The notes under the pieces are model-generated. The model had not been told where the DNA came from. It did no database searches and saw only the letters and a list, made by a program, of their open reading frames with translations. DNA of 32,000 bases from Candidatus Auribacterota bacterium (lineage in GTDB: Bacteria > Auribacterota > UBA6266): positions 1-32,000 of the forward strand of contig JAGLRQ010000079.1 of NCBI GenBank assembly GCA_023136205.1. The letters run 5' to 3'. Made by a program: the position numbers and the translations under genes. Positions 1,420 to 18,145 of this stretch are shown here, in pieces (within the stretch, counting starts at the first letter, position 1; each line of letters begins with the position of its first letter).

Positions 1420-1507
1420 GGAGGAGTGGCAGAGTGGTCGATCGCGGCGGTCTTGAAAACCGTTGTCCTTAACAGGACCGTGGGTTCAAATCCTACCTCC
1501 TCCGCCA
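1420..1507 (+). tRNA. tRNA-Ser (anticodon UGA), type II with long variable arm, CCA encoded
   Basis: Acceptor GGAGGAG/CTCCTCC. Anticodon loop CTTGAAA (TGA). Variable-arm hairpin GTCC-TTAACA-GGAC. T arm GTGGG-TTCAAAT-CCTAC. Discriminator G followed by CCA at 1505-1507. Confidence 0.9.
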
Positions 1508-3169
1508 TTGCAACCAATTCGAACCTTTGTGTTTCTCATCCAGGAGCGCAAGGGTTTGAATTTTTGTATGTGCCACATAGGAAGGTTTAAACTTCTTCTC
1601 TCCATTGCTTACAATATAATAAAAATCAGAATTCTTATCTGTTACAGGCTCAAGCTTGATAGTACCAAGGATTTCTTTCAACGCCAATGCGGAGGAAGTG
1701 GTGTTCTTGCTCAAAGTCTCATGCAACCTGTCAAGCCGGTGATTTATCCATTCCTTCGGCGGGGATTTAAAGGTATTATCTTTTTGATATTCCAGAGATT
1801 TTAATTCATCCTTTAAAGTTTTACTTTTTGATTCAGCTTCCTTCAACGCCTCTGAAACAGCACTTGAGAAATTGCCCACTTTAATGTAATTAAGGTAATT
1901 TTGTATTTCCAAAAACACTTTATCATGTTGAGATTTCTTTTTCTTAATAAGTTCAGGTGTTTTATTAAGCCCTTTTGATACAAGCTTCTCCAACTTCTTA
2001 TAAACACATTCCAGATTCTGATGCGTTAATATCTTTCCTTTTAATTCTGATATTATGGTTTGTTCTACACGATTCCGGGGAACTAAGAGCGTGTTATCAC
2101 AGGTTTTTCTCTTTGCATTATAGCAGCCATAGTAACCACTTCCCTTCCCTCCTACAAGAACAACAGCCCCACCACAGGAATTGCACTTCAAAAGCCCCGC
2201 AAGCAGGTGCGTGGGACTGGCTTTAACATAGCTTTTTTGTTTTATATTACTTTTTTTCCTAACTGGCCAGGCGCCCTCAAGCTCTTGCCATCTTTTCTGA
2301 GCCTTTTCCCAAGTTTCCTTATCAATAATTACCAAATCTTCTTTGAAAACAGGCATTTGCTCTTTTTCTGCGCGGGGAACTTTCTTTACTTTCCCTGTCA
2401 TAGGGTCTCTGACATTTTTCCATTTTCTCCATACCCAGAGTCCCATATATTTCTCATTTTTTAAGATTCTGCTCACGGTTGAAATATTCCACCCTCCGAT
2501 ATATCCTTTCTTAGTTGGTGTCTTATCACTGTTAAGATCCCTTACAATCCTGTTTATGCTTTTACCCTCTATAAACTCCTTAAATATCCTCTTAACAATA
2601 TCCGCTTCATCGGGATTTATTTTATGAACCATCCCCTCGTATTTGGGGTTACCTTTTTTATTTAACTTGAGCTCTCCGAAAGGATGACTGCTATATCCAT
2701 AAACATTTTCTCCCGTGCTAAAACCCCTTAGTTTCTGCCCTTCCAGGCCTCTCATGGTCTTTTTCTTAAGGTCATCAAGGTATAACTCATTTATAAATCC
2801 CCGAATATGAATCCCCAGCTTTGAGTTCTCATCATCAGTAATAATCCCGTCTGACACAGATATAAGTTTAATCTGGAGATAGTTAAACTTCATAACCAGT
2901 GTAAGCATCTGGTGATTGCTTCTTGACAGCCTCGATAAATCATCAACAGCCACCGCATCAAATTCCTTATTCTCAGCAGCCTTTTCCAGTGCCTGAAGAG
3001 CAGGCCGATTGACAATAGACCCGGAAATAGCCTCATCAATGTAAATATGCCTCTCTTCTACGGTCATCTTATTTTCTTTGATATACTTCTTACAGACCCT
3101 AATCTGATCATCAATGCTTTTCTCGCTTTGATTCTCAGAAGAATACCGCGCGTAAATTGCAACTTTCAT
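1493..3169 (-). CDS. Large serine recombinase (resolvase catalytic domain + recombinase domain + zinc ribbon/coiled coil)
   Basis: MKVAIYARYSSENQ...SIDDQ catalytic-Ser motif. Recombinase-domain block GWNISTVSRILKNEKYMG. Zn ribbon CNSCGG...GCYNAKRKTC. GAGGA lies upstream of the ATG at 3169 (the track ORF extends to 3196). The stop codon lies inside the tRNA gene. Confidence 0.9.
   Translation of the reverse strand: MKVAIYARYSSENQSEKSIDDQIRVCKKYIKENKMTVEERHIYIDEAISGSIVNRPALQALEKAAENKEFDAVAVDDLSRLSRSNHQMLTLVMKFNYLQIKLISVSDGIITDDENSKLGIHIRGFINELYLDDLKKKTMRGLEGQKLRGFSTGENVYGYSSHPFGELKLNKKGNPKYEGMVHKINPDEADIVKRIFKEFIEGKSINRIVRDLNSDKTPTKKGYIGGWNISTVSRILKNEKYMGLWVWRKWKNVRDPMTGKVKKVPRAEKEQMPVFKEDLVIIDKETWEKAQKRWQELEGAWPVRKKSNIKQKSYVKASPTHLLAGLLKCNSCGGAVVLVGGKGSGYYGCYNAKRKTCDNTLLVPRNRVEQTIISELKGKILTHQNLECVYKKLEKLVSKGLNKTPELIKKKKSQHDKVFLEIQNYLNYIKVGNFSSAVSEALKEAESKSKTLKDELKSLEYQKDNTFKSPPKEWINHRLDRLHETLSKNTTSSALALKEILGTIKLEPVTDKNSDFYYIVSNGEKKFKPSYVAHTKIQTLALLDEKHKGSNWLQWRRR
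1501..1528. repeat. attL: left copy of island direct repeat (TCCGCCATTGCAACCAATTCGAACCTTT)
   Basis: 25/28 identical to 18685-18712. The first 7 nt are the tRNA 3' end. Similarity stops abruptly to the left of T1501. Confidence 0.7.
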
Positions 3170-3301
3170 TTTTTGTTGTCCTCTAAATAAGACCATACCT
3201 TACGGAACAATAGTGACGTAAGTTATCTGGTCGAATTTATCCCGAAGCTTAAGTTAAAATTATCGCAAGAAAATTTTAGCTTGTTTAAGCAAGGGGCATT
3301 T

Positions 3302-3645: not shown

Positions 3646-3849
3646 ATGGATACCAAAAAGTTTGGCAAAAAAATCAAACTGGCCCGGGTAGAACAAGACC
3701 TGAACCAAACCCAGCTTGCCCGGAAAATTGGTGTCAAACAAAAAAGTATTTCCCGTTACGAAACCGGGGCGTCTATGCCATCAATTGAAACCCTGGTTAA
3801 AATTGCTAAGGTATTGAAAAAGTCGGCAGGGTATTTTCTGGATGGATAA
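3646..3849 (+). CDS. XRE-family (HTH_3) transcriptional regulator
   Basis: LNQTQLARKIGVKQKSISRYETGASMPSIETLVKIAKVL is a classic Cro/C1 HTH. AGAGG-type RBS region upstream. Confidence 0.85.
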   Translation: MDTKKFGKKIKLARVEQDLNQTQLARKIGVKQKSISRYETGASMPSIETLVKIAKVLKKSAGYFLDG

Positions 3850-3886: not shown

Positions 3887-5477
3887 ATGAAAAAGATATC
3901 TGAACTTAATCTAGGATTCAACGATGCAGAGAATTATCACAGGAGAGAAAACAAAGACTTATTTAATACAATTTTTATCAAGAACATTTTTTTTGATAAA
4001 ATATTACAACCAAGCACCTTTTTTCTTATCGGCGAGAAAGGCACAGGAAAAACAGCATACGCTGTTTACCTAAACAACAATGTACATTTTGATACACTAT
4101 CTGAACTTAAATACATTAGAGAAACAGATTACCAAAAATTTGTAACATTAAAAAAAAAATAAACATCTTCAGTTATCTGATTATTCTAGTATTTGGAAAG
4201 TTATTATATTGCTTCTATTGGCCAAAAGCGTTGAAAGCGATGAGTTAGATCATGGCCCCTTTGCCAAGAATAAAAGAATTAACGCATTAATGAAAGCAAT
4301 AGATGAATATTATGCAAACGCATTTGCTCCAGAAATCATCTATGCGCTAGATTTAGTAGAAAATTCAAAAACAGCTGCAGAATTAATAACCAAATACCTA
4401 AAACTAATAGGGGAGAAAACAGTTAGTACCAGTTTTCACGAATCTAAATTCCAAGTAAACCTTTTATATATCCAAAATCAATTTGAAAAGGCATTATATG
4501 ATATAAAGATTAAGAAAAATCATGTTTTATTTATAGATGGAATAGATATACGACCTGGAGTTATACCATATAAAGATTATCTAGAATGTGTGAAGGGACT
4601 AGCTAATGCGGTGTGGAGTTTAAATAATGACTTTTTCCCGAAAATCAGAGATTCAAAAGGTAGATTCCGAACAGTTTTATTGTTGCGACCTGATATTTTT
4701 AATACACTTGGTCTACAAAATCAAACTAATAAAGTGAGGGATAACTCTGTTTTTCTTGATTGGCGTACAACTTACCCTGAGTATAGCAATTCTAGCATTT
4801 TTGAATTATCAGATAAACTGTTAGCAGCACAACAAAATACGGAATTAAAATTGGGTGAAGCATGGAATTATTATTTTCCTTGGCAATCAAGACCAACTAG
4901 CCCTGAAAGATTCTTCGACCCATCATTTTTTAAATTTCTTAGACTTTCTTATTCAAGGCCCAGAGATATAGTTACAATGATCCAAATATTGCAAGAAACA
5001 ACTATCGAAAATCACAAAAAATCACAAAAAACTTTTGATGAAAAAGCCCTCGATAGCAACGATTTTCGCAATAAATATTCTGAATATTTAATGGGTGGCA
5101 TTAAGGATCAATTATCCTTTTATTACTCATCTAAAGATTATGAAATGTTTCTTAAATTCTTTAATTATTTAAACGGGAAAGGTGCATTTGATTATAAGGA
5201 ATATATCTCAGCATATAACTTATTTACTGATTATATATTACATAATCACACCGATATTCCTGAATTTGTTGAAACACCAGATACTTTTTTGCAATTTTTA
5301 TACGACACAAATATTATATGTTATATTGAAATTTTAGAAGGGAAAACCTTATTTAGATGGTGTTATAGAGAAAGGAGTCCCTCCAACATATCTCCTAAAG
5401 TAAAGCTTAATGTCCATTATAATGTCCATTATGGCCTGATGAAAGCCTTGAATCTCGGATTCAAGAAAACAGAATAA
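3887..5477 (+). pseudogene. P-loop NTPase (about 529 aa if restored), interrupted by a +1 frameshift in an A10 run
   Basis: Walker A GEKGTGKT; Walker-B-like HVLFIDGID. ORF 3887-4162 stops at TAA just after A10 (4150-4159). The frame of ORF 4209-5477 is open back to 4152. Removing one A joins them as ...FVTLKKNKHLQLSDYSSIWKVIILLLLAK... Confidence 0.65.
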
Positions 5478-5572: not shown

Positions 5573-5773
5573 ATGAAAAAGCGAACCCTCTTAATAATCA
5601 CTTTAGTATGCTGCCTCTTAACCGGATATGCTTTTTCTTCAGATGTAACTGACCTTTCCGGGAAGAAATATTTCCCAGCAGTAAAGGAAGCCATAGATAA
5701 TTCAGAGAAATCTATATTTATGGTTGTGTATATTGTGGACTTTGATGAAAGGGTGATGAGCGACAATTATAAT
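5573..5773 (+). pseudogene. 5' fragment of a secreted PLD/Nuc-like gene, truncated by the IS
   Basis: Signal-peptide-like N-terminus followed by YFPAVKEAIDNSEKSIFMVVYIV, which resembles the first conserved block of Nuc-type PLD proteins. The reading frame runs into the IS end. Confidence 0.4.
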
Positions 5774-7398
5774 TACCAGTCTCATTGCCTCAAGAAGAAA
5801 TGTTACCATTAGTTACAACCTGCGTCTACACCAATTGGGGCAACTACTGCCTGTCCAATATTTTTATCTAAACATGAATACACTAACTGCTTTGCCATAA
5901 TCTGCCTCCACTCCTGAACTCGCCGTTGCAGAGTTCTCAATTGACCATCTGTGAATTTTCCAGGATGATCTTTCTGAAGCCGTTCAAATAACAATTTAGC
6001 AGTAGTATCAGGTTCACTTTGTAGCCATTGGAGTACATCGGGCCAAACTTTTTCGAATGGATTTTTCCGCGTTCTCCAATAATGAGGTTTTGTTATAGTT
6101 TTTTGATGTGTTGGACGCACCTCGCCAGAATGCCAGAGTTGTGGTAGTTGTGCAAGAAATTGCTCTAAGCTATTTCGACCCGGGCCAGTGGATTCATTCG
6201 GAGAAACCAAAGCAGCTAATGCGGCTTGGTCGTCTCGTATACGATGTAGTAAATACACGGGGTCAAGTTCTTTGCGCTGCAATTGGAGTTTTTCCTTTGT
6301 TGATTGCATGACAGTAGGGTTGTTACACAAACGCTCACAAGGTGTCATCGGTTTGTCATACAATCGCTTGACCTTGGATCCTTCTCGCTTCTTTTCTCGC
6401 AATTTGAAGGAAGGCTGGTAATAATTTACATAAAACCTAACCGCTCGGTATAGATGAGCAAGTGCTTGACCGGCTACGACTCCTGAAAAACGCTCATATC
6501 CAACAAACCGCCGTATCACCGCCCCATTCTTTTGTTCGATCCAAGCTTGGTCATTTGGGCAAGACGGTCGTGATCGAGTAAAGTCAATGCTATGATTTTT
6601 GCAATATGAAAGTAGCGTATCGTTGATAAAAGCACTATCGTTATCAGAGTCGATTCTTAGAATGGGAAATGGTAGTTGCTGTCGCAGTACCTCAAGTCCC
6701 TCCACCACAAGGGATTGTTCTCTCGCCAGAAGCGGAATACACTCGACCCAACCTGAATATATATCTGTTGCAACAAGGCTGTGGATAAAAGAACCGGCCA
6801 TGGATCCGCCACCGTGCACCACAAAATCGATTTCTAAATATCCTGGAGATGGTTCATTCCAATCTGCAAATGTATGGACAGGCACTTGCGCACTGACTTT
6901 ATTTGGCTTTCGGCGACGTTTTCTACGTGAACATCCCTGTTTCCGAACATCCGAAAGCAACCGGTCGAGAGTTGCTGCGCTGGCTAAAAGTAGTCGTCGC
7001 CTCACCTCTGGGTCGAGTTCTATATGACCGTGACGTTCCATCGCATCCACTAAATTAGGCAATATAGCCTTTAGTCTCTTACCGCAAATTCGATCTGCGA
7101 CTTCCCAAGTAACAATTAATGCTTCTCTCACAGCTTCGTTGTAAATGCGTCTGCTTTTGGTAGGTTTATTATCAAAGCCTGCCAGATTTCTGTTTCCAAG
7201 CAGGCGAGTAGCGTGTTTTCGGTGATATCCGGCAACCGCAACAAACTCGTCCAATATCCTCGCCTTTTCATTTTTTGGAGCCTTTATATAACGATTTCTC
7301 AGGACTTCCAAGAGTTCATTTCTTGTATGCTTACTAATTTTTTTCCCCATTTTTTGCCTCCTGATTTTGGTAACATTATCATGAGGCAACGACTGGCA
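5774..7398 (-). mobile_element. IS element (about 1.6 kb) with imperfect terminal inverted repeats
   Basis: Left end TACCAGTC..TTGCCTCA..AATGTTACCA versus the reverse complement of the right end TGCCAGTC..TTGCCTCA..AATGTTACCA. A single rve-type transposase fills the element. Its GC content is clearly higher than the surrounding island. Confidence 0.7.
5809..7350 (-). CDS. DDE (rve/integrase-core) transposase; IS family not resolved by eye (ISNCY/IS481-like)
   Basis: N-terminal HTH region (ILDEFVAVAGYHRKHATRLL). Catalytic core LEIDFV...IDSDNDSAF...NDQAWIEQKNG. A strong AGGAGG lies 6 nt upstream of the ATG at 7350; the track ORF starts at 7389. Confidence 0.85.
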   Translation of the reverse strand: MGKKISKHTRNELLEVLRNRYIKAPKNEKARILDEFVAVAGYHRKHATRLLGNRNLAGFDNKPTKSRRIYNEAVREALIVTWEVADRICGKRLKAILPNLVDAMERHGHIELDPEVRRRLLLASAATLDRLLSDVRKQGCSRRKRRRKPNKVSAQVPVHTFADWNEPSPGYLEIDFVVHGGGSMAGSFIHSLVATDIYSGWVECIPLLAREQSLVVEGLEVLRQQLPFPILRIDSDNDSAFINDTLLSYCKNHSIDFTRSRPSCPNDQAWIEQKNGAVIRRFVGYERFSGVVAGQALAHLYRAVRFYVNYYQPSFKLREKKREGSKVKRLYDKPMTPCERLCNNPTVMQSTKEKLQLQRKELDPVYLLHRIRDDQAALAALVSPNESTGPGRNSLEQFLAQLPQLWHSGEVRPTHQKTITKPHYWRTRKNPFEKVWPDVLQWLQSEPDTTAKLLFERLQKDHPGKFTDGQLRTLQRRVQEWRQIMAKQLVYSCLDKNIGQAVVAPIGVDAGCN

Positions 7399-7399
7399 C

Positions 7400-7966
7400 T
7401 TGGCAACAAAAGTTATGAGTCAAGGCGATGATGAGATTGTTATCATAGGAAGCACAAACTGGTCTAATTCAGCCTTAAGAAGAAACAACGAAACCTCTGC
7501 CCTTATAAAATCCAAGGAGCTGGCAAAATCTCTTCTTACAAACTTCTTCCATATCGCCATTGATTATGAGGCAAGTAAATCAATTCATCAAAAAGCTTCT
7601 CCCCTTGCAATATGCAGATATTTTTTGGAAGACTCCGATCTGGCAGGTAGAATGATGACTTCCCGCGATGAAAGAGCCTTTGATGTATATCTCTTGCTCC
7701 TGAAAGATAACCTTGCAGAGTCAGGGTTTAACTATAACAAGATAGCCTTGCAATTGGGTTTAGACAAGAAAATGGCTGTGAATGACTATAGAAGACAGAT
7801 CAACAAGACCTTAAGAAAGCTTGAGAGCCAATACAACTTAACGGACGAGTACGGAAAAGAGCAAGTCCCAGAGGCATTTGATATAGTTTCCCAAAAGGCG
7901 ATAGACAATCCCAGAAAAACTTATAAATATGTCGTGGGGATTTTGAGAAATGCTGCAGTCCCCTGA
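7400..7966 (+). pseudogene. 3' fragment of PLD-like gene (HKD-motif tail) with a C-terminal helical/wHTH-like extension
   Basis: DDEIVIIGSTNWSNSALRRNNETSALI matches the D(x)6GSxN...N.E half of the PLD HKD motif. No canonical HxK remains, and there is no proper start. Confidence 0.55.
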
Positions 7967-8055: not shown

Positions 8056-8217
8056 ATGAATAACAAAAAACCCGGACTCATAGAACGATTCTTTGCCTGG
8101 TTGTTTGAGCTAGTGAATGATATTGTTGAAGATGCAACCGACTCAATAGCTGAGAAAGTAGTGGGAAAAATGAAAGAAGAGCAGTTTTTGGAAGGAAAAG
8201 ATAAGGAAAACGAATAG
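8056..8217 (+). CDS. Possible small ORF (53 aa, acidic), absent from the supplied track
   Basis: ATG 8056 to TAG 8215-8217 (MNNKKPGLIERFFAWLFELVNDIVEDATDS...), just upstream of the sce7726-like gene. No clear RBS. Confidence 0.2.
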   Translation: MNNKKPGLIERFFAWLFELVNDIVEDATDSIAEKVVGKMKEEQFLEGKDKENE

Positions 8218-8263
8218 AAAATAGGTGTCCGTCTATCATTTCACTCATTTTGTCAAAAATATC

Positions 8264-8896
8264 ATGGATAAAGCAGAGCAAATTAAAACTGAAGCTATCA
8301 AATGGTTACTTAAAGGAAATTTATCCTTTAAATCCAACAGGGATGCGATTGGGACAGAAGTCCTTTTTTCTGTAAAGAGGAGAAAGGCTGATTTACTAAT
8401 TCTTTCTACCAATACCCATGCAATTGAAATAAAGAGCGATTTCGACAAGCTTGACAAATTAAAAACGCAATTACAAGATTACTACAATTCATTTGATAAA
8501 GTATCGGTCATAACTACCCTGAGACATGTTTGCAATATTAAAAAAGTTTTATCCCCAAAGGCTGGCTTAATTATTTTTGATAATGCATCTTTCAAAGTTT
8601 TAAGAAAAGCAAAGCGACAAAAACGATTAAACAAAAGCTCATTATTAATGTTCCTGCCAAAAGATGAATTAACCAAAATATATAGGGCACCAAGAGGTCA
8701 ACGACTTTCCGTAACAGAAATACGTATGAGGATTAAGAACCAATTAAATGCGGACGAAATCAGGGAAAAAGCTTTCTCGCATTTAAAAAAACGATACAGA
8801 AAGCTTTTTGAATTATTCCTACATGATACCGCTGGCATTATAATCTGGGATGAGCTTCGGGGGTTATCTGGTAAGATCAATAAGTTGCATGGTTAA
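8264..8896 (+). CDS. sce7726/MmcB-like protein (PD-(D/E)xK nuclease fold)
   Basis: GTEVLFSVKRRKADLLILSTNTHAIEIKSDFDKLDKLKTQLQDYYNSFDKVSVITT fits the E...(R/K)ADL...EIKS.D....L..Q...Y...FD pattern of that family. Start taken at the ATG at 8264; the track starts at 8225. Confidence 0.55.
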   Translation: MDKAEQIKTEAIKWLLKGNLSFKSNRDAIGTEVLFSVKRRKADLLILSTNTHAIEIKSDFDKLDKLKTQLQDYYNSFDKVSVITTLRHVCNIKKVLSPKAGLIIFDNASFKVLRKAKRQKRLNKSSLLMFLPKDELTKIYRAPRGQRLSVTEIRMRIKNQLNADEIREKAFSHLKKRYRKLFELFLHDTAGIIIWDELRGLSGKINKLHG

Positions 8897-9975
8897 AAGA
8901 GATTATTCCTGAGAGTGATGTAAATATTCATTCTGATTGAAATCCAAAAGGAAGGTGAAAGCCCTTGCGGATATCCTTCTGATGCTGATTCAATCTGTTT
9001 AATGCCCCAACAATTTCTTACATTATTTTTTGTTCTTCTATATGCCTTTTTACCAACAATCATTTGAGCAACTCTTTTGTAAGCATCAGCGTAAGTTCTT
9101 TCTATATTACTTCTTCTTGAACGATGATAAAATATCTGGTTTTCCGTCGGAACGTCAATTCTTGGTATCCACCCATTCCCGCCGGCCTGATCACTCCTAA
9201 CTGGATGAATGGAAGCATAATCACTATAAACAATTTCCTTGTCGATGTTATCATTTACCCGAGTATAAAATTCTACTTCCTCAAGATTAAAAGTCCCATC
9301 ATCTTCGCCCCCAAATTCCGTTGGATTTTTAGGGTATGAGGTTGCAGATAAAACAAGCTTTTCAATGGAATAGTTTTCCAATTCTTTAATTAAACTTTTT
9401 GCCTTCGTTGCGTTATCTTCGGCTTTACCTTGTGTTATAAACCCGAAGTCCATAAGAACAATCAGCTTACTAATTAAGAGCGCCTCGTTAATAATATCGA
9501 GATCGTGTTTATAGTCTGGGTAATCTGCGGGGAAACGATAAACGAGAGATTCAAACTTCCCATCTAAAGCCTCTACCTGTTCTTTTAATCGTTCATTATA
9601 TTCTTTCTCATTAGAAACATCTTTATCGGATATTTGAATTGTGGGAATTATAGAAGGGAAATCTTCTTGAAGTTCTGTCACCAATGTAACCCATTTCCCA
9701 TAGCCCTTTGTAGTAGTTTGCAACCCTTCAATCTGTTCATTAATTAAATTTGGTTCTGTCGTTAAATCAAGAATAAAGCACCTATCCTCAAAAACTTCTT
9801 CCAATTTTCTCAACCTTCTGTAGATATCACCACCTTCCAAGTATTTCGTCCTTCGAGATTTTGTTAATTCCACTAACGGCGTGATCTTATCTTTCACATC
9901 ACTGGAAAGATTTTTTAAAGCTCTAAGTTCAGCGTCGGTCGTCTTAATTATTGGAATATAAGTAATATCGCTCAT
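8893..9975 (-). CDS. Beta_protein-family (PF14350-like; sce7725-like) protein
   Basis: The N-terminus YIPIIKTTDAELRALKNLSSDVKDKITPLVEL matches the family's Y.P.lK...gE..AL..L.....i.PL.E opening, and the size fits. Overlaps the ImmA gene stop by 4 nt. Confidence 0.55.
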   Translation of the reverse strand: MSDITYIPIIKTTDAELRALKNLSSDVKDKITPLVELTKSRRTKYLEGGDIYRRLRKLEEVFEDRCFILDLTTEPNLINEQIEGLQTTTKGYGKWVTLVTELQEDFPSIIPTIQISDKDVSNEKEYNERLKEQVEALDGKFESLVYRFPADYPDYKHDLDIINEALLISKLIVLMDFGFITQGKAEDNATKAKSLIKELENYSIEKLVLSATSYPKNPTEFGGEDDGTFNLEEVEFYTRVNDNIDKEIVYSDYASIHPVRSDQAGGNGWIPRIDVPTENQIFYHRSRRSNIERTYADAYKRVAQMIVGKKAYRRTKNNVRNCWGIKQIESASEGYPQGLSPSFWISIRMNIYITLRNNLF

Positions 9976-10523
9976 AAACCATGTCCTGACATTCCTAAAC
10001 TTTTTGCTCTTAGTCGCACAGTCAAAGTAGAAACCTTAAAGAATCTTGCCAAATCTTTAATTTCCTTAACCCCAGACCGTACTTGTTTTTTAAATTTATA
10101 TTCAGGCATTAATATTTCACTAGCAAATTCGTTAGCCTGCCATTCTGATCTTTTAGATTCTCCACCTCTAAAAAAAATCTTATCCTCAAAAATATGGCTT
10201 AAATGTTTATGCTTACAAAAATGACCTAATTCATGAGCAATTGTATATCTTTGCCTGTTGGGATGATGATAAGTATTCACTTGTATTCTCCATTGTCCCG
10301 ACTCTTCATCATAAAAAAGCTTGCCAGAAAGATCATCACTTAACTCAACAAACTCCACCCTAATACCAAGTTTTTTAGCTAAGTCTTCCACGTCCAAAGG
10401 GTCGCAATTAACTTCATGGGCCTTCGCGAAGCGTATCAATTTATCTGCAGTATCAATTAAAGCAATATCATTCTTATTGGCTTCTTGTCGGGTTAAAAAT
10501 ATTTTACGTCTTACTATTGCCAT
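9972..10523 (-). CDS. ImmA/IrrE-family (COG2856, peptidase M78) zinc metallopeptidase
   Basis: HEXXH motif in IAHELGHFCKH, followed by EWQANEFASEILMP, the typical ImmA/IrrE downstream block. No fused HTH. Confidence 0.85.
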   Translation of the reverse strand: MAIVRRKIFLTRQEANKNDIALIDTADKLIRFAKAHEVNCDPLDVEDLAKKLGIRVEFVELSDDLSGKLFYDEESGQWRIQVNTYHHPNRQRYTIAHELGHFCKHKHLSHIFEDKIFFRGGESKRSEWQANEFASEILMPEYKFKKQVRSGVKEIKDLARFFKVSTLTVRLRAKSLGMSGHGL

Positions 10524-11162
10524 TTAGCCCTTCCTTTTCTTTGGAAAACTCTGGCCTCTCAGGTGTTTCCTTCCCTGATGCGGCGCATCTGTATCCTTAA
10601 CTTCATCATAACTTCTTGCATTTAATGTTTTTTCGAGAAATTCAATTCTATCTTCTAGGTTAAGCACTTGCATTAATTCATCCGAATTTTTAAATTCTGT
10701 AAATTTCATATCTATAATATTTTTTAAAATAATCTGAAATGATTCACTACACTCCAAAGCCTCATTAGCCAACTCTCGAGCTTGGTGTCTTGATGAAAAA
10801 TACACATACATAAAACTAACAGCCATTAAAACACCAATAACACTTAATAATAATGTTATTATAAGTTCATAAAAATCTGTTATTTCTTGAGTATAAAATT
10901 CCAATGAATGGTTATATTTACTCTCGGTTAAAATTGCTCCTTTTTCTTGTTGCGGGCTCGGAGTTTTTATTTGTAATTCTTTGAGGTCTTTTTCATGGAC
11001 ATTTGTATTAACTGTCTGTTCTTCTTGAGTTTTTAGAGATTCTGAAGCCAAAGAAGGTGTTACATTCAGGAAATATCCCATAAACATAGCATATGTTACG
11101 CTGATCAAAAACAATACAGTGCAAAACAATATTTTCGATGAATATTTCTTTTTCTTATCCAT
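10524..11162 (-). CDS. Two-TM membrane protein, first gene of the ImmA/Beta operon
   Basis: TM segments ILFCTVLFLISVTYAMFMGYFL and LIITLLLSVIGVLMAVSFMYVYF, with a basic C-terminal tail. The stop codon abuts the ImmA start with no gap (10524/10523). Confidence 0.6.
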   Translation of the reverse strand: MDKKKKYSSKILFCTVLFLISVTYAMFMGYFLNVTPSLASESLKTQEEQTVNTNVHEKDLKELQIKTPSPQQEKGAILTESKYNHSLEFYTQEITDFYELIITLLLSVIGVLMAVSFMYVYFSSRHQARELANEALECSESFQIILKNIIDMKFTEFKNSDELMQVLNLEDRIEFLEKTLNARSYDEVKDTDAPHQGRKHLRGQSFPKKRKG

Positions 11163-11470
11163 TAAGAATCCTTAATATATGTGTTTATTGAGATTGTCAA
11201 TTATTTAACTATTATAATCACTAGTGTCTAATTAAGAAATGTTCCATTTACGTAAGGTGTTAATATATTGATAGCAACAACAAAATTTAGATTTTTCGAC
11301 TTGAAACGATTTTTGTTAAACCATTTTTTGTTCCGACGACATAGACGATAACATACACACCCTAACCATCTAATAATATTACACGCGATCTTATTTAGCA
11401 AGAAATCTTAATGGCCCCCCTTTGTTGTAACCACTTTTCTTTCATGCTAAAATATCTAAATGAGGGAATA

Positions 11471-12352
11471 ATGAGTTTTGATTTCAATCCAAATATAAGA
11501 AAGTTTTCATTTAAAAATGCTTTAATACTCGCTGAAGCATCGGAATTAGCCTACAAATCACGAGCGGAATATAAAAAGATTCTTAAAGAAAAGTGGGGAT
11601 TCTCGGATATTTACCCCCTGGATAAAAATGAGACCCAGGGTTTTGTTGCAAAGAAAGAAGATATGATATTAATTGCTTTTCGGGGGACGGAAGAAACAAA
11701 GAATGAAGATATATTTACAGATATACTGGCGTGCCAGACAAAAACAGAACTGGGAAAAGTCCATTATGGGTTTTTACGGGCCCTTAAAGCTGTCTGGAAG
11801 GACGTGCTGACAACAGTTAAGAATTATCAGGACAATAATCAGCCTGTATGGATTACAGGACATAGCCTGGGAGGGGCTTTAGCCGCCCTTGCTTCCGCCA
11901 AGCTCGCATCAATAAATGCATGTCAAAAGATTACCGGGGTATATACATTTGGACAACCAAGAGTAGGAGATAAAAACTTCAAAGAAAATTTTGAAAGGTT
12001 ACTTCCAGGCGGAACCTATAGAGTTGCCAACTTTAAGGATCCGGTTACTCTGGTGCCATTGAATATTAATTTAAAAATATGGGAAAAACGCATAATCTTT
12101 CAATACGATCATGCGGGTAAAATTATATTGTTTAATGAAGCCGGGGAAATAGCTGAATCCGGTGATTTGGTTACGCGATGGGTGTTAATTTGGGTAGCTG
12201 TTTTAGGTTTTGTAGTTGCGTTGATTGTAAAAATGTTGAGAAAAATGAAATTAGCAGAGGGATTGTTAAAATTGTTTAAAAATCCGGCAACCCCGCATGG
12301 GCTAGATCAATATAAAGAAAATATTATTAAAAATTTAGCACACAACAGGTAA
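11471..12352 (+). CDS. Class-3 lipase family alpha/beta hydrolase with C-terminal TM helix
   Basis: Nucleophile elbow GHSLGGALA; AFRGTE and FGQPRVGD blocks typical of Lipase_3. C-terminal WVLIWVAVLGFVVALIV. GAGGGA RBS before the ATG at 11471. Confidence 0.8.
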   Translation: MSFDFNPNIRKFSFKNALILAEASELAYKSRAEYKKILKEKWGFSDIYPLDKNETQGFVAKKEDMILIAFRGTEETKNEDIFTDILACQTKTELGKVHYGFLRALKAVWKDVLTTVKNYQDNNQPVWITGHSLGGALAALASAKLASINACQKITGVYTFGQPRVGDKNFKENFERLLPGGTYRVANFKDPVTLVPLNINLKIWEKRIIFQYDHAGKIILFNEAGEIAESGDLVTRWVLIWVAVLGFVVALIVKMLRKMKLAEGLLKLFKNPATPHGLDQYKENIIKNLAHNR

Positions 12353-12374: not shown

Positions 12375-13826
12375 TTATCTTTTTTGAGCTTTCTTTTGAT
12401 ATTCTTTTTGTCTGAGGATTAGCTCATCTGATGAAAAGCATATATCGAGTTCGTCTTCGTGTTCTAATAGCTGCGAAGAAATAAGAAAGTTATACTGTCC
12501 ACCATTGTCAGACTGGTTTGCTCCAACACTGTAGATTTTCCACGAGCCGTTTTCCCCGATATATTTGAAGGGTTCATTACCTTTGCTGAATGGATCTTCA
12601 GGTATTTTATCTATATACTCAGGGGACAGTTCCAATAAAGAAGCAGGCGGGTTTCCGTTGTTTTTATCCTGGTAAAGTCTCACTGCCAGAAATAACGCTG
12701 TTCCTCTCAGGTTAGCTAAATGACGGTTGTAATATGAAAGGGCATTATTAAGTGCCGGAATGTGCAGAGACACAAGCATTCTGCCTACAGGGTCGCCGGA
12801 AAATAACATTAAAAAGGGATGCTTTGCATGCTTTTCAATATATTGCAGAATTTCTGTGTTAAAGCGGTCCGGATCATACGGACCTGATGCTATATCGATT
12901 AAATGGGAATATACTGCATCAAGGGTTTGATTTATTTTTTCAGGCGTGCTCCCAAGAGCATCTGCTACCGCTTTTCGCATAGATATTTTACCGGAATGAT
13001 TGACGTTTTGTTCTTTTAAATCAGCTATCAACAACCATCCTGCCGGGAAGGTTTGATTAACTTTAAAGATTGCGAGCTTTGTTGTATCTGTGATATTTTT
13101 GGCTGCCATACGCTCGTATCGTAATACCTCGGCAAAAGGCTCGTTTTTTTTATCAATCTGTCCAACCATTGATATCATAGAGTTTAAAACGCTTTCAGGT
13201 GCCTTATGTTGGAGAACAACCTTTCTCATGCTCTGGCATGCCACATTAGTGCATACTGTATCAACAAGGTAGTTGATAAGACATCCGCCGCGACTCAAAT
13301 GGTCTCCTACAATAAGCATTGTTTTGTAGCTGTCTAAAACAGATTGCCAGTTCCCTTTTGCAGCATCCCTTTCAGCTATAAAAGATAATACTTTAACCTT
13401 GTCACGGATGGGAGAGAGATAAGGAAGCAGTGTTTCAAAAGATATGGCGGTAGCAACCTGGCATTCCTGTATTTCTGCAGCTTTCCTGCAGAGTGCAACC
13501 TCATCAGCATTATTATCAACCCATTTTTCAAGAAGAGGATACTTTCCTTCTTCCCACTCGTATGCAACAAATCTATCATATTCTTTGCTAGCCTCTCCTA
13601 TTTCATTGTCACTGCTGTTTATTTGCCGGATATAATAAAATGCATTATCTTCCGTGATATCCTCGTCGTAAAGAATGGGGCGTGAAGGCTCAAGCTGGAC
13701 TTCAGCCAGAAGCTTGGGCCAGGGCAGCATGTTTCTGCAAACCACAAACAGAGATATAATAGATATAATTAATATTACGACAATTTTCAGAATTGTTTCT
13801 AAAATTACTTTAAGGACATTTTTCAT
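12375..13826 (-). CDS. N-terminally anchored hypothetical protein (about 480-500 aa)
   Basis: Long ORF with a TM helix (IVVILIISIISLFVV) and no recognised domain. Alternative ATG at 13883. Confidence 0.55.
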   Translation of the reverse strand: MKNVLKVILETILKIVVILIISIISLFVVCRNMLPWPKLLAEVQLEPSRPILYDEDITEDNAFYYIRQINSSDNEIGEASKEYDRFVAYEWEEGKYPLLEKWVDNNADEVALCRKAAEIQECQVATAISFETLLPYLSPIRDKVKVLSFIAERDAAKGNWQSVLDSYKTMLIVGDHLSRGGCLINYLVDTVCTNVACQSMRKVVLQHKAPESVLNSMISMVGQIDKKNEPFAEVLRYERMAAKNITDTTKLAIFKVNQTFPAGWLLIADLKEQNVNHSGKISMRKAVADALGSTPEKINQTLDAVYSHLIDIASGPYDPDRFNTEILQYIEKHAKHPFLMLFSGDPVGRMLVSLHIPALNNALSYYNRHLANLRGTALFLAVRLYQDKNNGNPPASLLELSPEYIDKIPEDPFSKGNEPFKYIGENGSWKIYSVGANQSDNGGQYNFLISSQLLEHEDELDICFSSDELILRQKEYQKKAQKR

Positions 13827-14019
13827 TTTATATAATCTGTTCTTTAAGGTGCTTAAAAAAACGAGTAGGGTAATAAATACCATATATACATGTTCGGGTC
13901 AATATGGATAGGAAGATTTGAAAGGAGATATAAAAAAAGGAAGAAAAAACAGGAGGTTTCTCACATCCCAATTTCTCTCCTAAAAAATTAAATCACTAAC
14001 CCCACCCCCAACATTTCTT

Positions 14020-16864: not shown

Positions 16865-18145
16865 CTATAAATTTCTTTTAAAAAACCTATGAAATGATTT
16901 TGTTGTAACCCCTTCATATTTCTTAAGGTCCACATTGTTGGTTTTAAACATATCAATAGCTAGAGATTCTTCCATTGGATATGCTTCTAAATATACGACT
17001 TGAATAATACCCGAAGCGATAATTTTTTTACAGCATAACATACAGGGGAAAGCAGAAGTATATAATTTTGTTCCATGCAATGATGTGCTTCCCAATCTGG
17101 CAGCTTGAATAATTGCTGCTTCTTCAGCATGTACAGCCCTGCAAACACTCAATAATTTCCCAGGAAAAACTTCGTTTTTAAAACCACAATCTACACATAA
17201 CTTGCTATTCTTTTCTAATTTATGCCCACATTTTCTACAATATATATTATTTTCTAAAAACTCTTTCTTTATTTTGGCCCGATAACATTTTTCAGGGTAT
17301 TTTTTCTTACAATCTTCGTCTTCGTAAGGGACATTATTGCAACCGGTGGCAATTACATATCCTATAGCGCCCTTCAATTTTTCTTTATCAAGTTCTTTTT
17401 TAAAAGAGTAAGTATCGCGAACTATAACTGCCCCTACTTGCCTTTTGGAACATCTTGATTGCAAAGCTACACTGCAGGCTTGGTGCATATACGCCTCATT
17501 AGGGTAAGGAGGCCTACTCTCAGAATTTTCTATGAGATCATAAAAATCGGATAATCTCTGTGCATAACTATCAATAATCTTACCATTTTTTGTCCCATCA
17601 CAATCAAAAAAATCTTCTTCTGCATTAACAGAAATATCTGCCATTTCCATGCATTTTTTTACTTGTTGCCCATGTAGATTTTTCGTATCCCCGGCGTCCC
17701 GTTTTTCAATCTCACCAAACTCGTCTTTATGTTTAAACAAATCTTTTAATCTATCCCATCTTTTGTCATGGGATGCATCAATAGATAATAAAACAAAATG
17801 TTTTTTAAATTTTCTTTGAAAAGTTTCAATTTCATGTGGATTTCTGAAACATTCAATTACAGCTTTTTTGGGCTTTCTTTTGCATATTTCTTCAACTATT
17901 GGAGCTACAGTTTCGGGGTTTTCAGGGTTCTTTTTTCTTAATTCATCACCTAAATCTTGTAAAATCATTCTTTTTTTATTGGGTTGTTTCTTATCAAAAT
18001 CTTTGACTTTTTTTTTCGCTTTTTCTTTCAACAATGCTGAAATACTAAAATATTCCATTCCTTTGGTATTATGAAAGAACTTACTGGTTTCAGTGCAACC
18101 AGATCCAAATCTTCCGGTTAATCCAATTATCATTGTATCTTTCAT
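16865..18145 (-). CDS. Nucleotide-kinase-like P-loop domain fused to a CMP/dCMP-type zinc deaminase (architecture of defensive dCTP deaminases)
   Basis: N-terminal GLTGRFGSGCT P-loop. C-terminal SKRQVGAVIV...GCNN...HAEEAAI...PCMLCCKKI deaminase motifs. A CxxC...CxxC insert (CRKCGHKLEKNSKLCVDCG) lies before HAE. Confidence 0.8.
   Translation of the reverse strand: MKDTMIIGLTGRFGSGCTETSKFFHNTKGMEYFSISALLKEKAKKKVKDFDKKQPNKKRMILQDLGDELRKKNPENPETVAPIVEEICKRKPKKAVIECFRNPHEIETFQRKFKKHFVLLSIDASHDKRWDRLKDLFKHKDEFGEIEKRDAGDTKNLHGQQVKKCMEMADISVNAEEDFFDCDGTKNGKIIDSYAQRLSDFYDLIENSESRPPYPNEAYMHQACSVALQSRCSKRQVGAVIVRDTYSFKKELDKEKLKGAIGYVIATGCNNVPYEDEDCKKKYPEKCYRAKIKKEFLENNIYCRKCGHKLEKNSKLCVDCGFKNEVFPGKLLSVCRAVHAEEAAIIQAARLGSTSLHGTKLYTSAFPCMLCCKKIIASGIIQVVYLEAYPMEESLAIDMFKTNNVDLKKYEGVTTKSFHRFFKRNL

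Follow-up and report, generated by a model that had tools for sequence, protein, structure and literature searches.

The question raised by this locus is what a standalone zinc metallopeptidase is doing between a membrane protein gene and a gene for a Beta protein, and to what kind of system the genes around it belong. Within the window, the 32,000 nucleotides of Candidatus Auribacterota DNA that were analysed, three genes lie in succession on the minus strand: a two-TM protein (10524..11162, 212 aa, called from its open reading frame and hydropathy), a standalone M78 zinc metallopeptidase (9972..10523, 183 aa, reading frame and PF06114) and a Beta protein (8893..9975, 360 aa, reading frame and PF14350). 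A cII / sce7726-family gene on the plus strand (8225..8896, 223 aa, reading frame and NF033832) is transcribed antisense into the 3' end of this operon. A preliminary description of the locus had proposed translational coupling of the three minus-strand genes and a 4-nt overlap of the convergent 3' ends, and both were confirmed when the junctions were read from the sequence. The TAA stop of the TM gene (10524-10526) directly abuts the M78 ATG (10521-10523), ATGA at 9972-9975 provides the M78 stop and the Beta start together, and TTAA at 8893-8896 provides both convergent stop codons, those of Beta and cII. A consensus scan detected no terminator between Beta and cII. The two-TM gene has an AAGGA ribosome-binding site 9 nt 5' of its ATG, and the intergenic region upstream of the operon (11163..11410), common to a divergent lipase gene, is from its position presumed to be the promoter region; a promoter consensus scan there gave sites not above those of shuffled sequence. 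The cluster had been taken to start at 8056, a position that instead belongs to a separate 53-aa ORF (8056..8217) in a different frame. This ORF has no family match and has homologs solely on contigs of its own genome, and it was thus rejected as a fifth component. The true start of cII is probably the ATG at 8264, which would give 210 aa, rather than 8225, since homologs begin there, it is the start chosen in other gene calls, and the model is poor over residues 1-15.

Two of the four proteins are homologs of proteins of the gop-beta-cII anti-phage system of phage P4, named gop_beta_cll in PADLOC and DefenseFinder, for which Rousset 2022 (PMC9122126) cites Ghisotti 1990. That system guards against lambda and P1, its P4 locus cloned alone confers phage resistance, and Gop is toxic without Beta (PMC9122126). 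A phage protein triggers the cell-death phenotype; the anti-phage activity and the neutralisation of Gop by Beta are known for the P4 and E. coli versions only. In the window, Beta matched PF14350 (2e-55), PADLOC beta (3.8e-43) and PD-Lambda-2_C (3.4e-21), and aligned with P4 Beta at 25% identity (tblastn, 2e-19). The cII protein matched NF033832 sce7726_fam (4.7e-33, 114.6 bits against a cutoff of 70) and PADLOC cll (4.6e-29), has PF26915 Phage_P4_cII on record, and is 32% identical to P4 cII (2e-21). Of the domain calls originally made, those of Beta, M78 and sce7726 stood up to the HMM check and that of two TM segments to hydropathy, but that of sce7725 was not supported: neither the window Beta nor P4 Beta matched the NCBIfam sce7725 model even at E<=10, and an annotated sce7725 protein from a Moraxella plasmid is not Beta by Pfam and gave a probability of 1.9% in hhalign. 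Beta as sce7725 was accordingly rejected, the sole remaining likeness being an N-terminal YxPI...EL.AL motif that is not significant. Together, these similarities and the gene order indicate, with a probability of about 0.85, that the cluster is a four-gene variant of the gop-beta-cII defence family, so that a locus first called uncharacterised would belong to a family whose anti-phage activity has been shown by experiment (PMC9122126). The earlier link to gop-beta-cII was correct, but the P4 locus is not a combination of Beta, M78 and HTH; that combination, given as its make-up, fits instead PD-lambda-2 (Vassallo 2022, PMC9519451).

The predicted folds of Beta and cII bear on what the shared proteins might do. 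For cII, residues E45, D56, E68, K70, D74 and Q82 were invariant in a 19-sequence alignment, with D56 "nearly invariant" in one of 70 sequences, and there were sub-threshold MmcB-like, HSDR_N_2 and NERD matches. The AF2 model (pLDDT 93.2) found 3DNX as its best PDB match in Foldseek (E 2.9e-5), followed by XisH, YaeQ and NucS. An N-terminal PD-(D/E)xK (restriction-endonuclease-like) domain with a helical C-terminal domain is therefore predicted, a putative nuclease fold, and the PD-(D/E)xK / MmcB-like assignment proposed earlier is upheld by E45, D56 and E68-x-K70 together with these matches. At 50% identity, the cII/sce7726 family comprises about 1,500 clusters. The Beta model (pLDDT 94.4, pTM 0.93) is of a divergent TIM-barrel-like fold, and against the PDB it gave generic TIM-barrel matches only (TM<=0.43), with no characterised structural relative; BFVD held one uncharacterised phage relative, and PDB sequence and profile searches with Beta and cII gave nothing useful. 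Nine Beta residues are invariant (E16, D70, D176, S213, Y250, D252, R272, D274 and R348), and in the model these acidic, polar and basic residues sit on or just past the barrel strands, suggesting a conserved putative ligand or active site. Beta is proposed as a hub, sensor or antitoxin, the role of sensor being a guess, since no structural relative of Beta has been characterised.

The four-gene neighbourhood singled out in the preliminary description proved to be conserved. It was found in 79 dereplicated loci from several bacterial phyla and some viral contigs, with M78 and Beta overlapping in 71 and the 3' ends of Beta and cII in 73; on this basis the block recurs far beyond chance, the four genes being inherited together across phyla. 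Every genome locus that had an M78 protein at least 38% identical, and enough sequence, showed TM-M78-Beta converging on cII, and these span Pirellulales, Thermoguttaceae, Omnitrophota, Elusimicrobia, Melainabacteria and Bacteroidales; gammaproteobacterial loci are arranged likewise. The block was complete in 60 of 80 metagenome loci, most of the others being cut by contig ends. Among 25 viral Beta loci, M78 was present in five and about 18 were canonical, and the presence of M78 follows the Beta tree. When 933 flanking ORFs from the 79 loci were clustered, no conserved HTH substrate and no other fifth gene emerged.

With these comparisons, the novel element of the cluster could be placed. P4 Gop is a two-TM protein of 133 aa with no direct similarity to the M78 peptidase, which led to rejection of the idea that Gop is itself a peptidase, and P4 cII is already a member of the sce7726 family by RefSeq annotation. 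The M78 peptidase is thus the addition, and the membrane and nuclease-fold proteins are canonical parts, which reverses the original description of a membrane-anchored, nuclease-linked variant. The M78-bearing four-gene form was found undescribed in the literature searched. It would have arisen by insertion of a CapP/ImmA-type M78 gene between the Gop-position membrane gene and beta.

The two-TM protein was characterised mainly by its topology. Hydropathy places TM segments at aa 8-34 and aa 94-124, giving in order a short basic N-terminus, TM1, an acidic extracytoplasmic loop of about 60 aa, TM2 and a helical cytoplasmic tail of about 88 aa. Among related loci, 69 unique ones have a two-TM protein in this place, with a median length of 207 aa, a loop of 10-97 aa and a tail of 68-106 aa; a word-index search returned one non-self homolog only. 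Comparison with the Gop family by hhalign gave 75.6% probability (E 2.4e-5; reversed control 1.6%), to be read knowing that TM and coiled-coil segments can match spuriously, and homology to Gop is weak. The PADLOC gop model did not match the protein, and the same model also misses the Gop equivalent of phage Pmp11; HMM searches gave no toxin-family match. A "2TM-beta family protein" of a 2026 preprint was considered and is unrelated to the cluster. The protein had first been seen as standing in the place of an XRE partner, but it reads better as an effector in the Gop position, that is, as a candidate membrane toxin.

The loop, long and variable, is also as expected of a surface-exposed sensing element, and this bears on a different division of labour, close to the sensor-protease-nuclease logic of the preliminary description, in which the peptidase itself is the toxin or the cII nuclease the main effector, and the two-TM protein serves for sensing or anchoring. 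PD-lambda-2B, the XRE-M78 protein of PD-lambda-2, is toxic on its own, and defence by that system needs Beta (PMC9519451); with toxicity there residing in the XRE-M78 protein itself, the M78 peptidase here might act as effector instead of trigger. The conserved PD-(D/E)xK signature and fold of cII likewise would suit a nuclease effector, yet cII lies on the opposite strand under separate control. Moreover, the toxic part in P4 is the membrane protein Gop, neutralised by Beta (PMC9122126), and the canonical systems work without any peptidase, which leaves this arrangement rather unlikely.

The M78 peptidase matched PF06114 (4.6e-24) and PADLOC capP (7.6e-34), and its family profile searched against the PDB matched CapP (7T5T, 8.6e-16) across residues 28-174 of 291. 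Invariant H97, E98, H101 and E127 form an intact HExxH...E zinc site, compared with H97, E98, H101 and E128 in CapP (PMC13228613), and the active site therefore appears competent. More than 250 homologs were found, nearly all of about 183 aa. The 183-aa protein contains PF06114 only, with neither HTH nor GAF domain, and the PD-Lambda-2_B model matches it in the peptidase part only (1.4e-7). One further locus, L041, having an XRE-M78 fusion and a Beta-like ORF 4 kb away, was rejected as a PD-lambda-2 relative because its two genes are not neighbours.

The M78 relatives characterised so far (ImmA, IrrE, CapP) all have an XRE repressor as their substrate, and neither a toxin nor an antitoxin; with CapP as the closest family it might be supposed that the peptidase here does the same, cleaving a repressor encoded elsewhere and derepressing the operon after DNA damage, as a regulator and not a killing switch. 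A candidate substrate is present on the same island, a CapH-like XRE HTH protein of 67 aa at 3646-3849 (capH match 3e-11), and an XRE HTH adjoins cII in about five of the 79 loci. However, none is conserved in the remaining 74 or so, and the HTH gene of the window lies more than 4 kb from the cluster, past an IS element, where it heads its own genes. The ssDNA-sensing groove of CapP lies between the peptidase and GAF domains (PMC13228613), and the M78 protein lacks the GAF domain that forms it; it is moreover embedded in the operon, overlapping Beta, and not part of a separate regulator pair. Control of the CapH/CapP type is for these reasons considered distinctly unlikely.

The mechanism preferred for the four-gene variant is an abortive-infection, toxin-antitoxin-like module. 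In the uninfected cell Beta would restrain the Gop-like membrane toxin, just as Gop is neutralised by Beta in P4. The M78 peptidase, having no sensor domain of its own, would be controlled in trans, most plausibly by Beta. A phage cue would then lead the peptidase to cleave a component of the system, Beta itself or the TM protein in its cytoplasmic tail, and not a transcription factor, freeing the membrane toxin to arrest or kill the cell. The cII protein may act on DNA as a second effector, or may serve in DNA sensing or regulation. The specific protease-trigger mechanism is put forward tentatively, at clearly less than even odds, and a single blended grading of family assignment and mechanism comes out somewhat above even. 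It is a fairly doubtful proposition that a protease of the ImmA/IrrE/CapP family, shorn of its DNA-sensing domain and repressor substrate, has been rewired as a Beta-regulated, post-translational trigger that cleaves a component of the membrane-toxin complex; Beta would there be the subunit that senses a ligand or phage protein, and cleavage would fire abortive infection.

The surroundings of the cluster could also point away from defence, to an addiction or maintenance module, or a lysogeny and induction control module of integrative mobile elements, with the peptidase in an ImmA-like anti-repressor function. A serine recombinase and the IS element lie within the window, the flanks of related loci often carry integrases and recombinases (a descriptive observation), ImmA-type proteases control element induction, and P4 cII is reportedly named after a clear-plaque (lysogeny) phenotype. 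In favour of defence, a dCTP-deaminase defence gene (4.2e-84) lies 6 kb from the cluster, and R-M genes occur in the flanks of related loci, again as a descriptive observation. The mobile-element context does not discriminate, since defence systems ride mobile elements as a rule, and one module could serve both addiction and abortive infection. With no repressor partner present, and with the homologous P4 locus giving phage resistance when cloned alone (PMC9122126), a non-defence role is very unlikely.

As both gop-beta-cII and PD-lambda-2 are validated anti-phage systems that contain Beta (PMC9122126, PMC9519451), the four-gene form represents a third, widespread architecture, taking its two-TM candidate toxin and cII from the former and an M78 peptidase beside Beta from the latter. 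It allows a direct test of what Beta senses, and of whether non-repressor substrates can be cleaved by M78 proteases. Current defence-annotation tools are expected to overlook such loci or to report them as incomplete, because the TM protein has no PADLOC gop match. If the rewired trigger is true, Beta would be a new sensor or enzyme hub common to all three systems, and the obligate overlap between the convergent transcripts of Beta and cII would provide further, antisense control.

In comparison with known systems, the cII protein of the cluster passes sce7726_fam as in the NCBIfam sce7725/sce7726 pair, but its partner is Beta, not sce7725, and in the annotated Moraxella example the two genes point the same way, with a RES-domain gene after them. 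With CapH/CapP, and also ImmR/ImmA and DdrO/IrrE, the cluster has the M78 catalytic core in common, zinc ligands at the same positions, and CapP is the best match in both PADLOC and the PDB. CapP, however, is a protein of 291 aa with C-terminal HTH and GAF domains (the ssDNA-binding groove) and an adjacent XRE substrate gene, whereas the 183-aa M78 protein has neither domain and no adjacent XRE gene and is translationally coupled inside an effector operon. The M78-Beta partnership recurs independently in PD-lambda-2, of toxin-antitoxin-like, abortive character, where an M78 peptidase is likewise immediately upstream of a Beta-family protein. There the peptidase forms a fusion with an XRE HTH (about 400 aa), the first gene encodes a HigB-like partner in place of the two-TM protein, and cII is absent; the cluster proteins also have far better scores with the beta and capP models than with PD-Lambda-2_C and _B. 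The closest plan is that of P4, a small two-TM gop followed by beta and converging on cII, which Pasteurella phage Pmp11 also has. In P4 a 27-nt gap with an annotated terminator separates beta from cII, whereas here the genes overlap with no terminator, and the TM protein is longer (212 versus 133 aa), with its long extracytoplasmic loop. The three genes of gop-beta-cII are here four, the M78 gene lying between those of the TM protein and Beta, and both P4 gop-beta-cII and the cluster family are carried on mobile elements.

The four genes, and the junctions between them as set out in the preliminary description, were confirmed by ORF calling and by direct reading of the sequence. Three minus-strand genes encode a two-TM protein (10524..11162, 212 aa), an M78 peptidase (9972..10523, 183 aa) and Beta (8893..9975, 360 aa, PF14350), and these converge on a plus-strand gene (8225..8896) for a cII, or sce7726-like, protein of 223 aa as called, the start of which is probably the ATG at 8264. 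The stop of the two-TM gene abuts the start of the peptidase gene (TAA followed directly by ATG, 10521-10526), ATGA at 9972-9975 is common to the peptidase stop and the Beta start, and TTAA at 8893-8896 contains the stops of both Beta and cII, which converge. The left boundary of 8056 previously assigned to the system was incorrect, as that position belongs to a separate acidic 53-aa ORF (8056-8217, plus strand) in another frame, which immediately precedes cII. This ORF matched no family and had no homolog beyond the contigs of its own genome, and was therefore dropped as a member of the system; in about 5 of 79 related loci its position holds a small XRE HTH protein.

Profile searches supported the assignments of Beta (Pfam PF14350, 2e-55) and the peptidase (Pfam Peptidase_M78, 4.6e-24). 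For the protein encoded on the plus strand, the NCBIfam model sce7726_fam scored 114.6 bits, where the cutoff is 70, and the record of exactly this protein also lists PF26915 Phage_P4_cII, a more recent Pfam family. Of the PADLOC gop_beta_cll models, "beta" matches Beta at 3.8e-43 and "cll" matches the sce7726-like protein at 4.6e-29, and the best PADLOC match of the peptidase is capP (7.6e-34). The earlier label "Beta/sce7725-like" reduces to "Beta", since the NCBIfam sce7725 models matched neither the window Beta nor P4 Beta even at E<=10, and an annotated sce7725 protein from a Moraxella plasmid is not Beta either by Pfam or in hhalign (probability 1.9%). A co-directional triplet of sce7726, sce7725 and a RES-domain (NAD+ phosphorylase) gene was located on Moraxella osloensis plasmid NZ_CP024177.1 (3237-6075). 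As sce7726 has there a partner other than Beta, along with the known toxin domain RES, this nuclease-fold protein may be a module that several TA or defence architectures have in common.

The window belongs to a MAG contig (GCA_030639325.1) with the NCBI label "Candidatus Aureabacteria bacterium", a name that the taxonomy assigns to the phylum Candidatus Auribacterota within the PVC group. Conservation of the four-gene neighbourhood was found in 79 dereplicated loci from several bacterial lineages and from viral sequence. In an M78-centred genome survey, with loci taken from one-genome-per-species contigs and ORFs searched locally, the two-TM, M78 and Beta genes converge on cII in every locus of sufficient length whose M78 is 38% identical or more; these loci represent Pirellulales, Thermoguttaceae, Omnitrophota, Elusimicrobia/Endomicrobium, Gastranaerophilales/Melainabacteria and Bacteroidales. 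The M78s of Shewanella, Vibrio and Moritella, which are more distant, also lie between a two-TM protein and Beta/cII. Complete blocks were present in 60 of 80 loci of a Beta-centred metagenome survey, biased to Beta proteins sharing 31% identity or more with that of the window; most of the others were cut by contig ends, and in three apparent exceptions the Beta ORF was truncated. A viral survey, likewise centred on Beta, yielded about 18 canonical Gop-Beta-cII loci and 5 M78-bearing loci among 25. In a neighbour-joining tree of Beta, M78 accompanies every Beta of the window clade (about 78 tips). Six further M78-positive tips form a clade that is sister to the canonical P4-type clade, and capP is the best match for the M78s of both M78-positive clades.

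The M78 and Beta genes overlap in 71 of the 79 four-gene loci, mostly by 4 or 8 nt. The 3' ends of Beta and cII overlap in 73 of the 79 and also in 19 of 25 three-gene loci, and the feature is therefore a trait of the Beta-cII core. The overlap of the convergent stops, without an intervening terminator, is a family-wide trait to which P4 is an exception; this arrangement implies an obligatory antisense overlap of the Beta and cII transcripts, in which the cII transcript would necessarily run antisense into beta. A further variant, on P. putida plasmid NZ_CP061724.1 (3429-6344), carries upstream of Beta a 352-aa protein that has no Pfam or PADLOC match. Its Beta, annotated only as hypothetical, matches PF14350 (9e-32) and converges with a 4-nt overlap on a 181-aa sce7726 protein. 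With a different upstream partner in this variant, the invariant core is Beta converging on cII, and the upstream partners are variable.

The M78 family of the window comprises more than 250 proteins, nearly all of about 183 aa and 46-64% identical, in which H97, E98, H101 and E127 are invariant. Its profile matches CapP (7T5T, 8.6e-16) over CapP residues 28-174 of 291 only. The zinc site of CapP is formed by H97/H101/E128, with E98 catalytic (PMC13228613); the window peptidase has the same catalytic residues, but lacks both the GAF and HTH domains. A CapH/CapP-like transcriptional role, with the peptidase acting on an unlinked repressor, is one rival explanation, and is in keeping with the capP match; across the flanks of 79 related loci neither an XRE gene nor any other fifth gene is conserved, and an XRE HTH adjoins the system in only about 5 of the 79. 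The peptidase is thus active-looking, sensor-less, substrate-less and coupled to Beta, within a set of genes that are strictly co-inherited. Its C-terminal tail (LGMSGHGL-stop) is strongly conserved in the window clade and not in the gammaproteobacterial clade; the corresponding DNA (window 9972-9995) is also where the ribosome-binding region and the start of beta lie, and the conservation may act on protein or on RNA.

Structure models were obtained for the two core proteins. Beta was modeled from a 63-sequence alignment as an alternating beta/alpha barrel (pLDDT 94.4). Searches of the PDB with Beta by sequence and profile gave no match; Foldseek with the model gave only generic TIM barrels (TM<=0.43: GH20, dehydroquinase, MTHFR, AP endonuclease IV/UVDE), and a BFVD search gave one uncharacterised Gordonia-phage relative. 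Residues D70, D176, S213, Y250, D252, R272 and D274 are invariant, are common to P4 Beta, and occur within barrel strands or immediately behind them; TIM barrels have their active site at the C-terminal strand ends. For cII, a library-wide search returned 1,487 clusters at E<=1e-3, and 70 representatives were used for a model (pLDDT 93.2) in which an alpha/beta domain at the N-terminus precedes a helical one at the C-terminus. The top PDB match of the model, 3DNX (SPO1766), has an E of 2.9e-5 and a probability of 1.0; XisH, YaeQ, AF2093 and NucS come next. In 19- and 70-sequence alignments E45 and E68-x-K70 are invariant and D56 is invariant or nearly so, and there are weak MmcB-like, HSDR_N_2 and NERD matches. 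Together, the modeled fold, the invariant residues and the family matches support a PD-(D/E)xK fold for cII, consistent with the nuclease-like call made from the sequence alone.

The two-TM protein of the window has predicted TM segments at aa 8-34 and 94-124 (hydropathy). The 69 unique proteins in this position (median length 207 aa) have a short basic N-terminus, an acidic inter-TM loop of 10-97 aa and a tail whose size is constant (68-106 aa). Sequence conservation is low, and a word-index search gave only one non-self homolog. P4 Gop is not a peptidase; its two TM segments form a hairpin, and a helical tail of some 85 aa comes after it. A profile of the two-TM proteins matched 18 Gop-position proteins with 75.6% probability (E 2.4e-5; reversed control 1.6%), a result that is no more than suggestive of a relationship to Gop, as TM and coiled-coil segments can match spuriously. 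The PADLOC gop model, which matches P4 Gop at 4.8e-70, matched neither the Pmp11 equivalent nor any two-TM protein of the four-gene loci.

The block sits in a low-GC stretch of the window. To its left an IS element (5809-7389, minus strand; rve integrase core, IS481/IS21-like, Y4rL_C) abuts a NucT/DrmC-like PLD nuclease fragment (7400-7966, plus strand). Of the PLD domain just the final ~47 residues are left, and the fragment probably stems from a defence nuclease gene that the IS element cut short; a candidate N-terminal remnant (5573-5812) had no Pfam match. A large serine recombinase (1493-3196, minus strand), which may be the integrase of the island, lies beside a plus-strand operon in which a 67-aa CapH-like XRE HTH gene (3646-3849; capH 3e-11) heads two genes of unknown function (91 and 422 aa, 3887-5477), possibly another regulated module. 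On the promoter side the system is flanked by a class-3 lipase gene (11411-12352, plus strand; PF01764, 1e-29), with a C-terminal hydrophobic stretch seen by eye, and by a gene for a 502-aa protein (12375-13883, minus strand) whose N-terminus is hydrophobic and whose C-terminus is weakly GspG-like. A second known defence gene, for a 426-aa dCTP-deaminase (16865-18145, minus strand; PADLOC "dCTPase" 4.2e-84, dCMP_cyt_deam_1 and weak AAA_18), is about 6 kb away. Among 148 flank ORFs of 34 related loci, the top Pfam families were Phage_integrase (10), Resolvase (4) and DNA methylases (4), with Eco57I, ResIII, HEPN and RteC also present; the tally is descriptive, without a control set, and fits a mobile or defence island. 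A pure role in mobile-element maintenance, one of the rival readings of the system, would sit with the integrases and resolvases.

When cloned, the gop-beta-cII system of P4-like satellites protects against lambda and P1, with Gop toxic when Beta is missing (PMC9122126), and its cell-death phenotype is triggered by a phage accessory protein (bioRxiv 10.1101/2023.04.06.535777). By analogy, Beta would restrain a membrane toxin in the window system, and the peptidase, regulated in trans and most simply by Beta, would cleave a system component such that the toxin is released; cII could serve as a further effector, or as an arm for DNA sensing or regulation. Alternatively, the peptidase or cII may be the main toxin: the XRE-M78 protein of PD-lambda-2 is toxic alone, with Beta needed for defence (PMC9519451), whereas in P4 toxicity lies with Gop.

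In the P4 record, gop (133 aa) and then beta (355 aa) converge on cII (264 aa), the last annotated in RefSeq as "sce7726 family protein", and Pasteurella phage Pmp11 has the same three-gene plan. Window cII and Beta are homologous to their P4 counterparts (32% identity, E 2e-21, and 25%, E 2e-19, respectively), and the two-TM protein is equivalent to Gop in position and topology. A 27-nt gap and an annotated terminator separate beta and cII in P4, in contrast to the overlapping, terminator-less stops of the window. As P4 has both a two-TM Gop and a sce7726-family cII, the membrane and nuclease-fold proteins are canonical and the M78 peptidase is the extra part. The preliminary description was thus accurate in what it observed, and less so in its sce7725 label, in its presentation of those two proteins as the novelty, and in its assignment of HTH, M78 and Beta to the P4 locus. 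That composition is instead the one of PD-lambda-2 (PMC9519451), in which a HigB-like protein and a fusion of XRE and peptidase accompany a protein "related to a P4 phage antitoxin". No published account of the four-gene form with M78 was found in the searchable literature, the coverage of which is incomplete, so that absence is not proven. The gop-beta-cII family is validated, but its mechanism is still unsolved; this variant and the structures assigned to Beta and cII give testable handles. The four-gene form shares the Beta-M78 pairing with PD-lambda-2 and is, in this sense, a hybrid between that system and gop-beta-cII.
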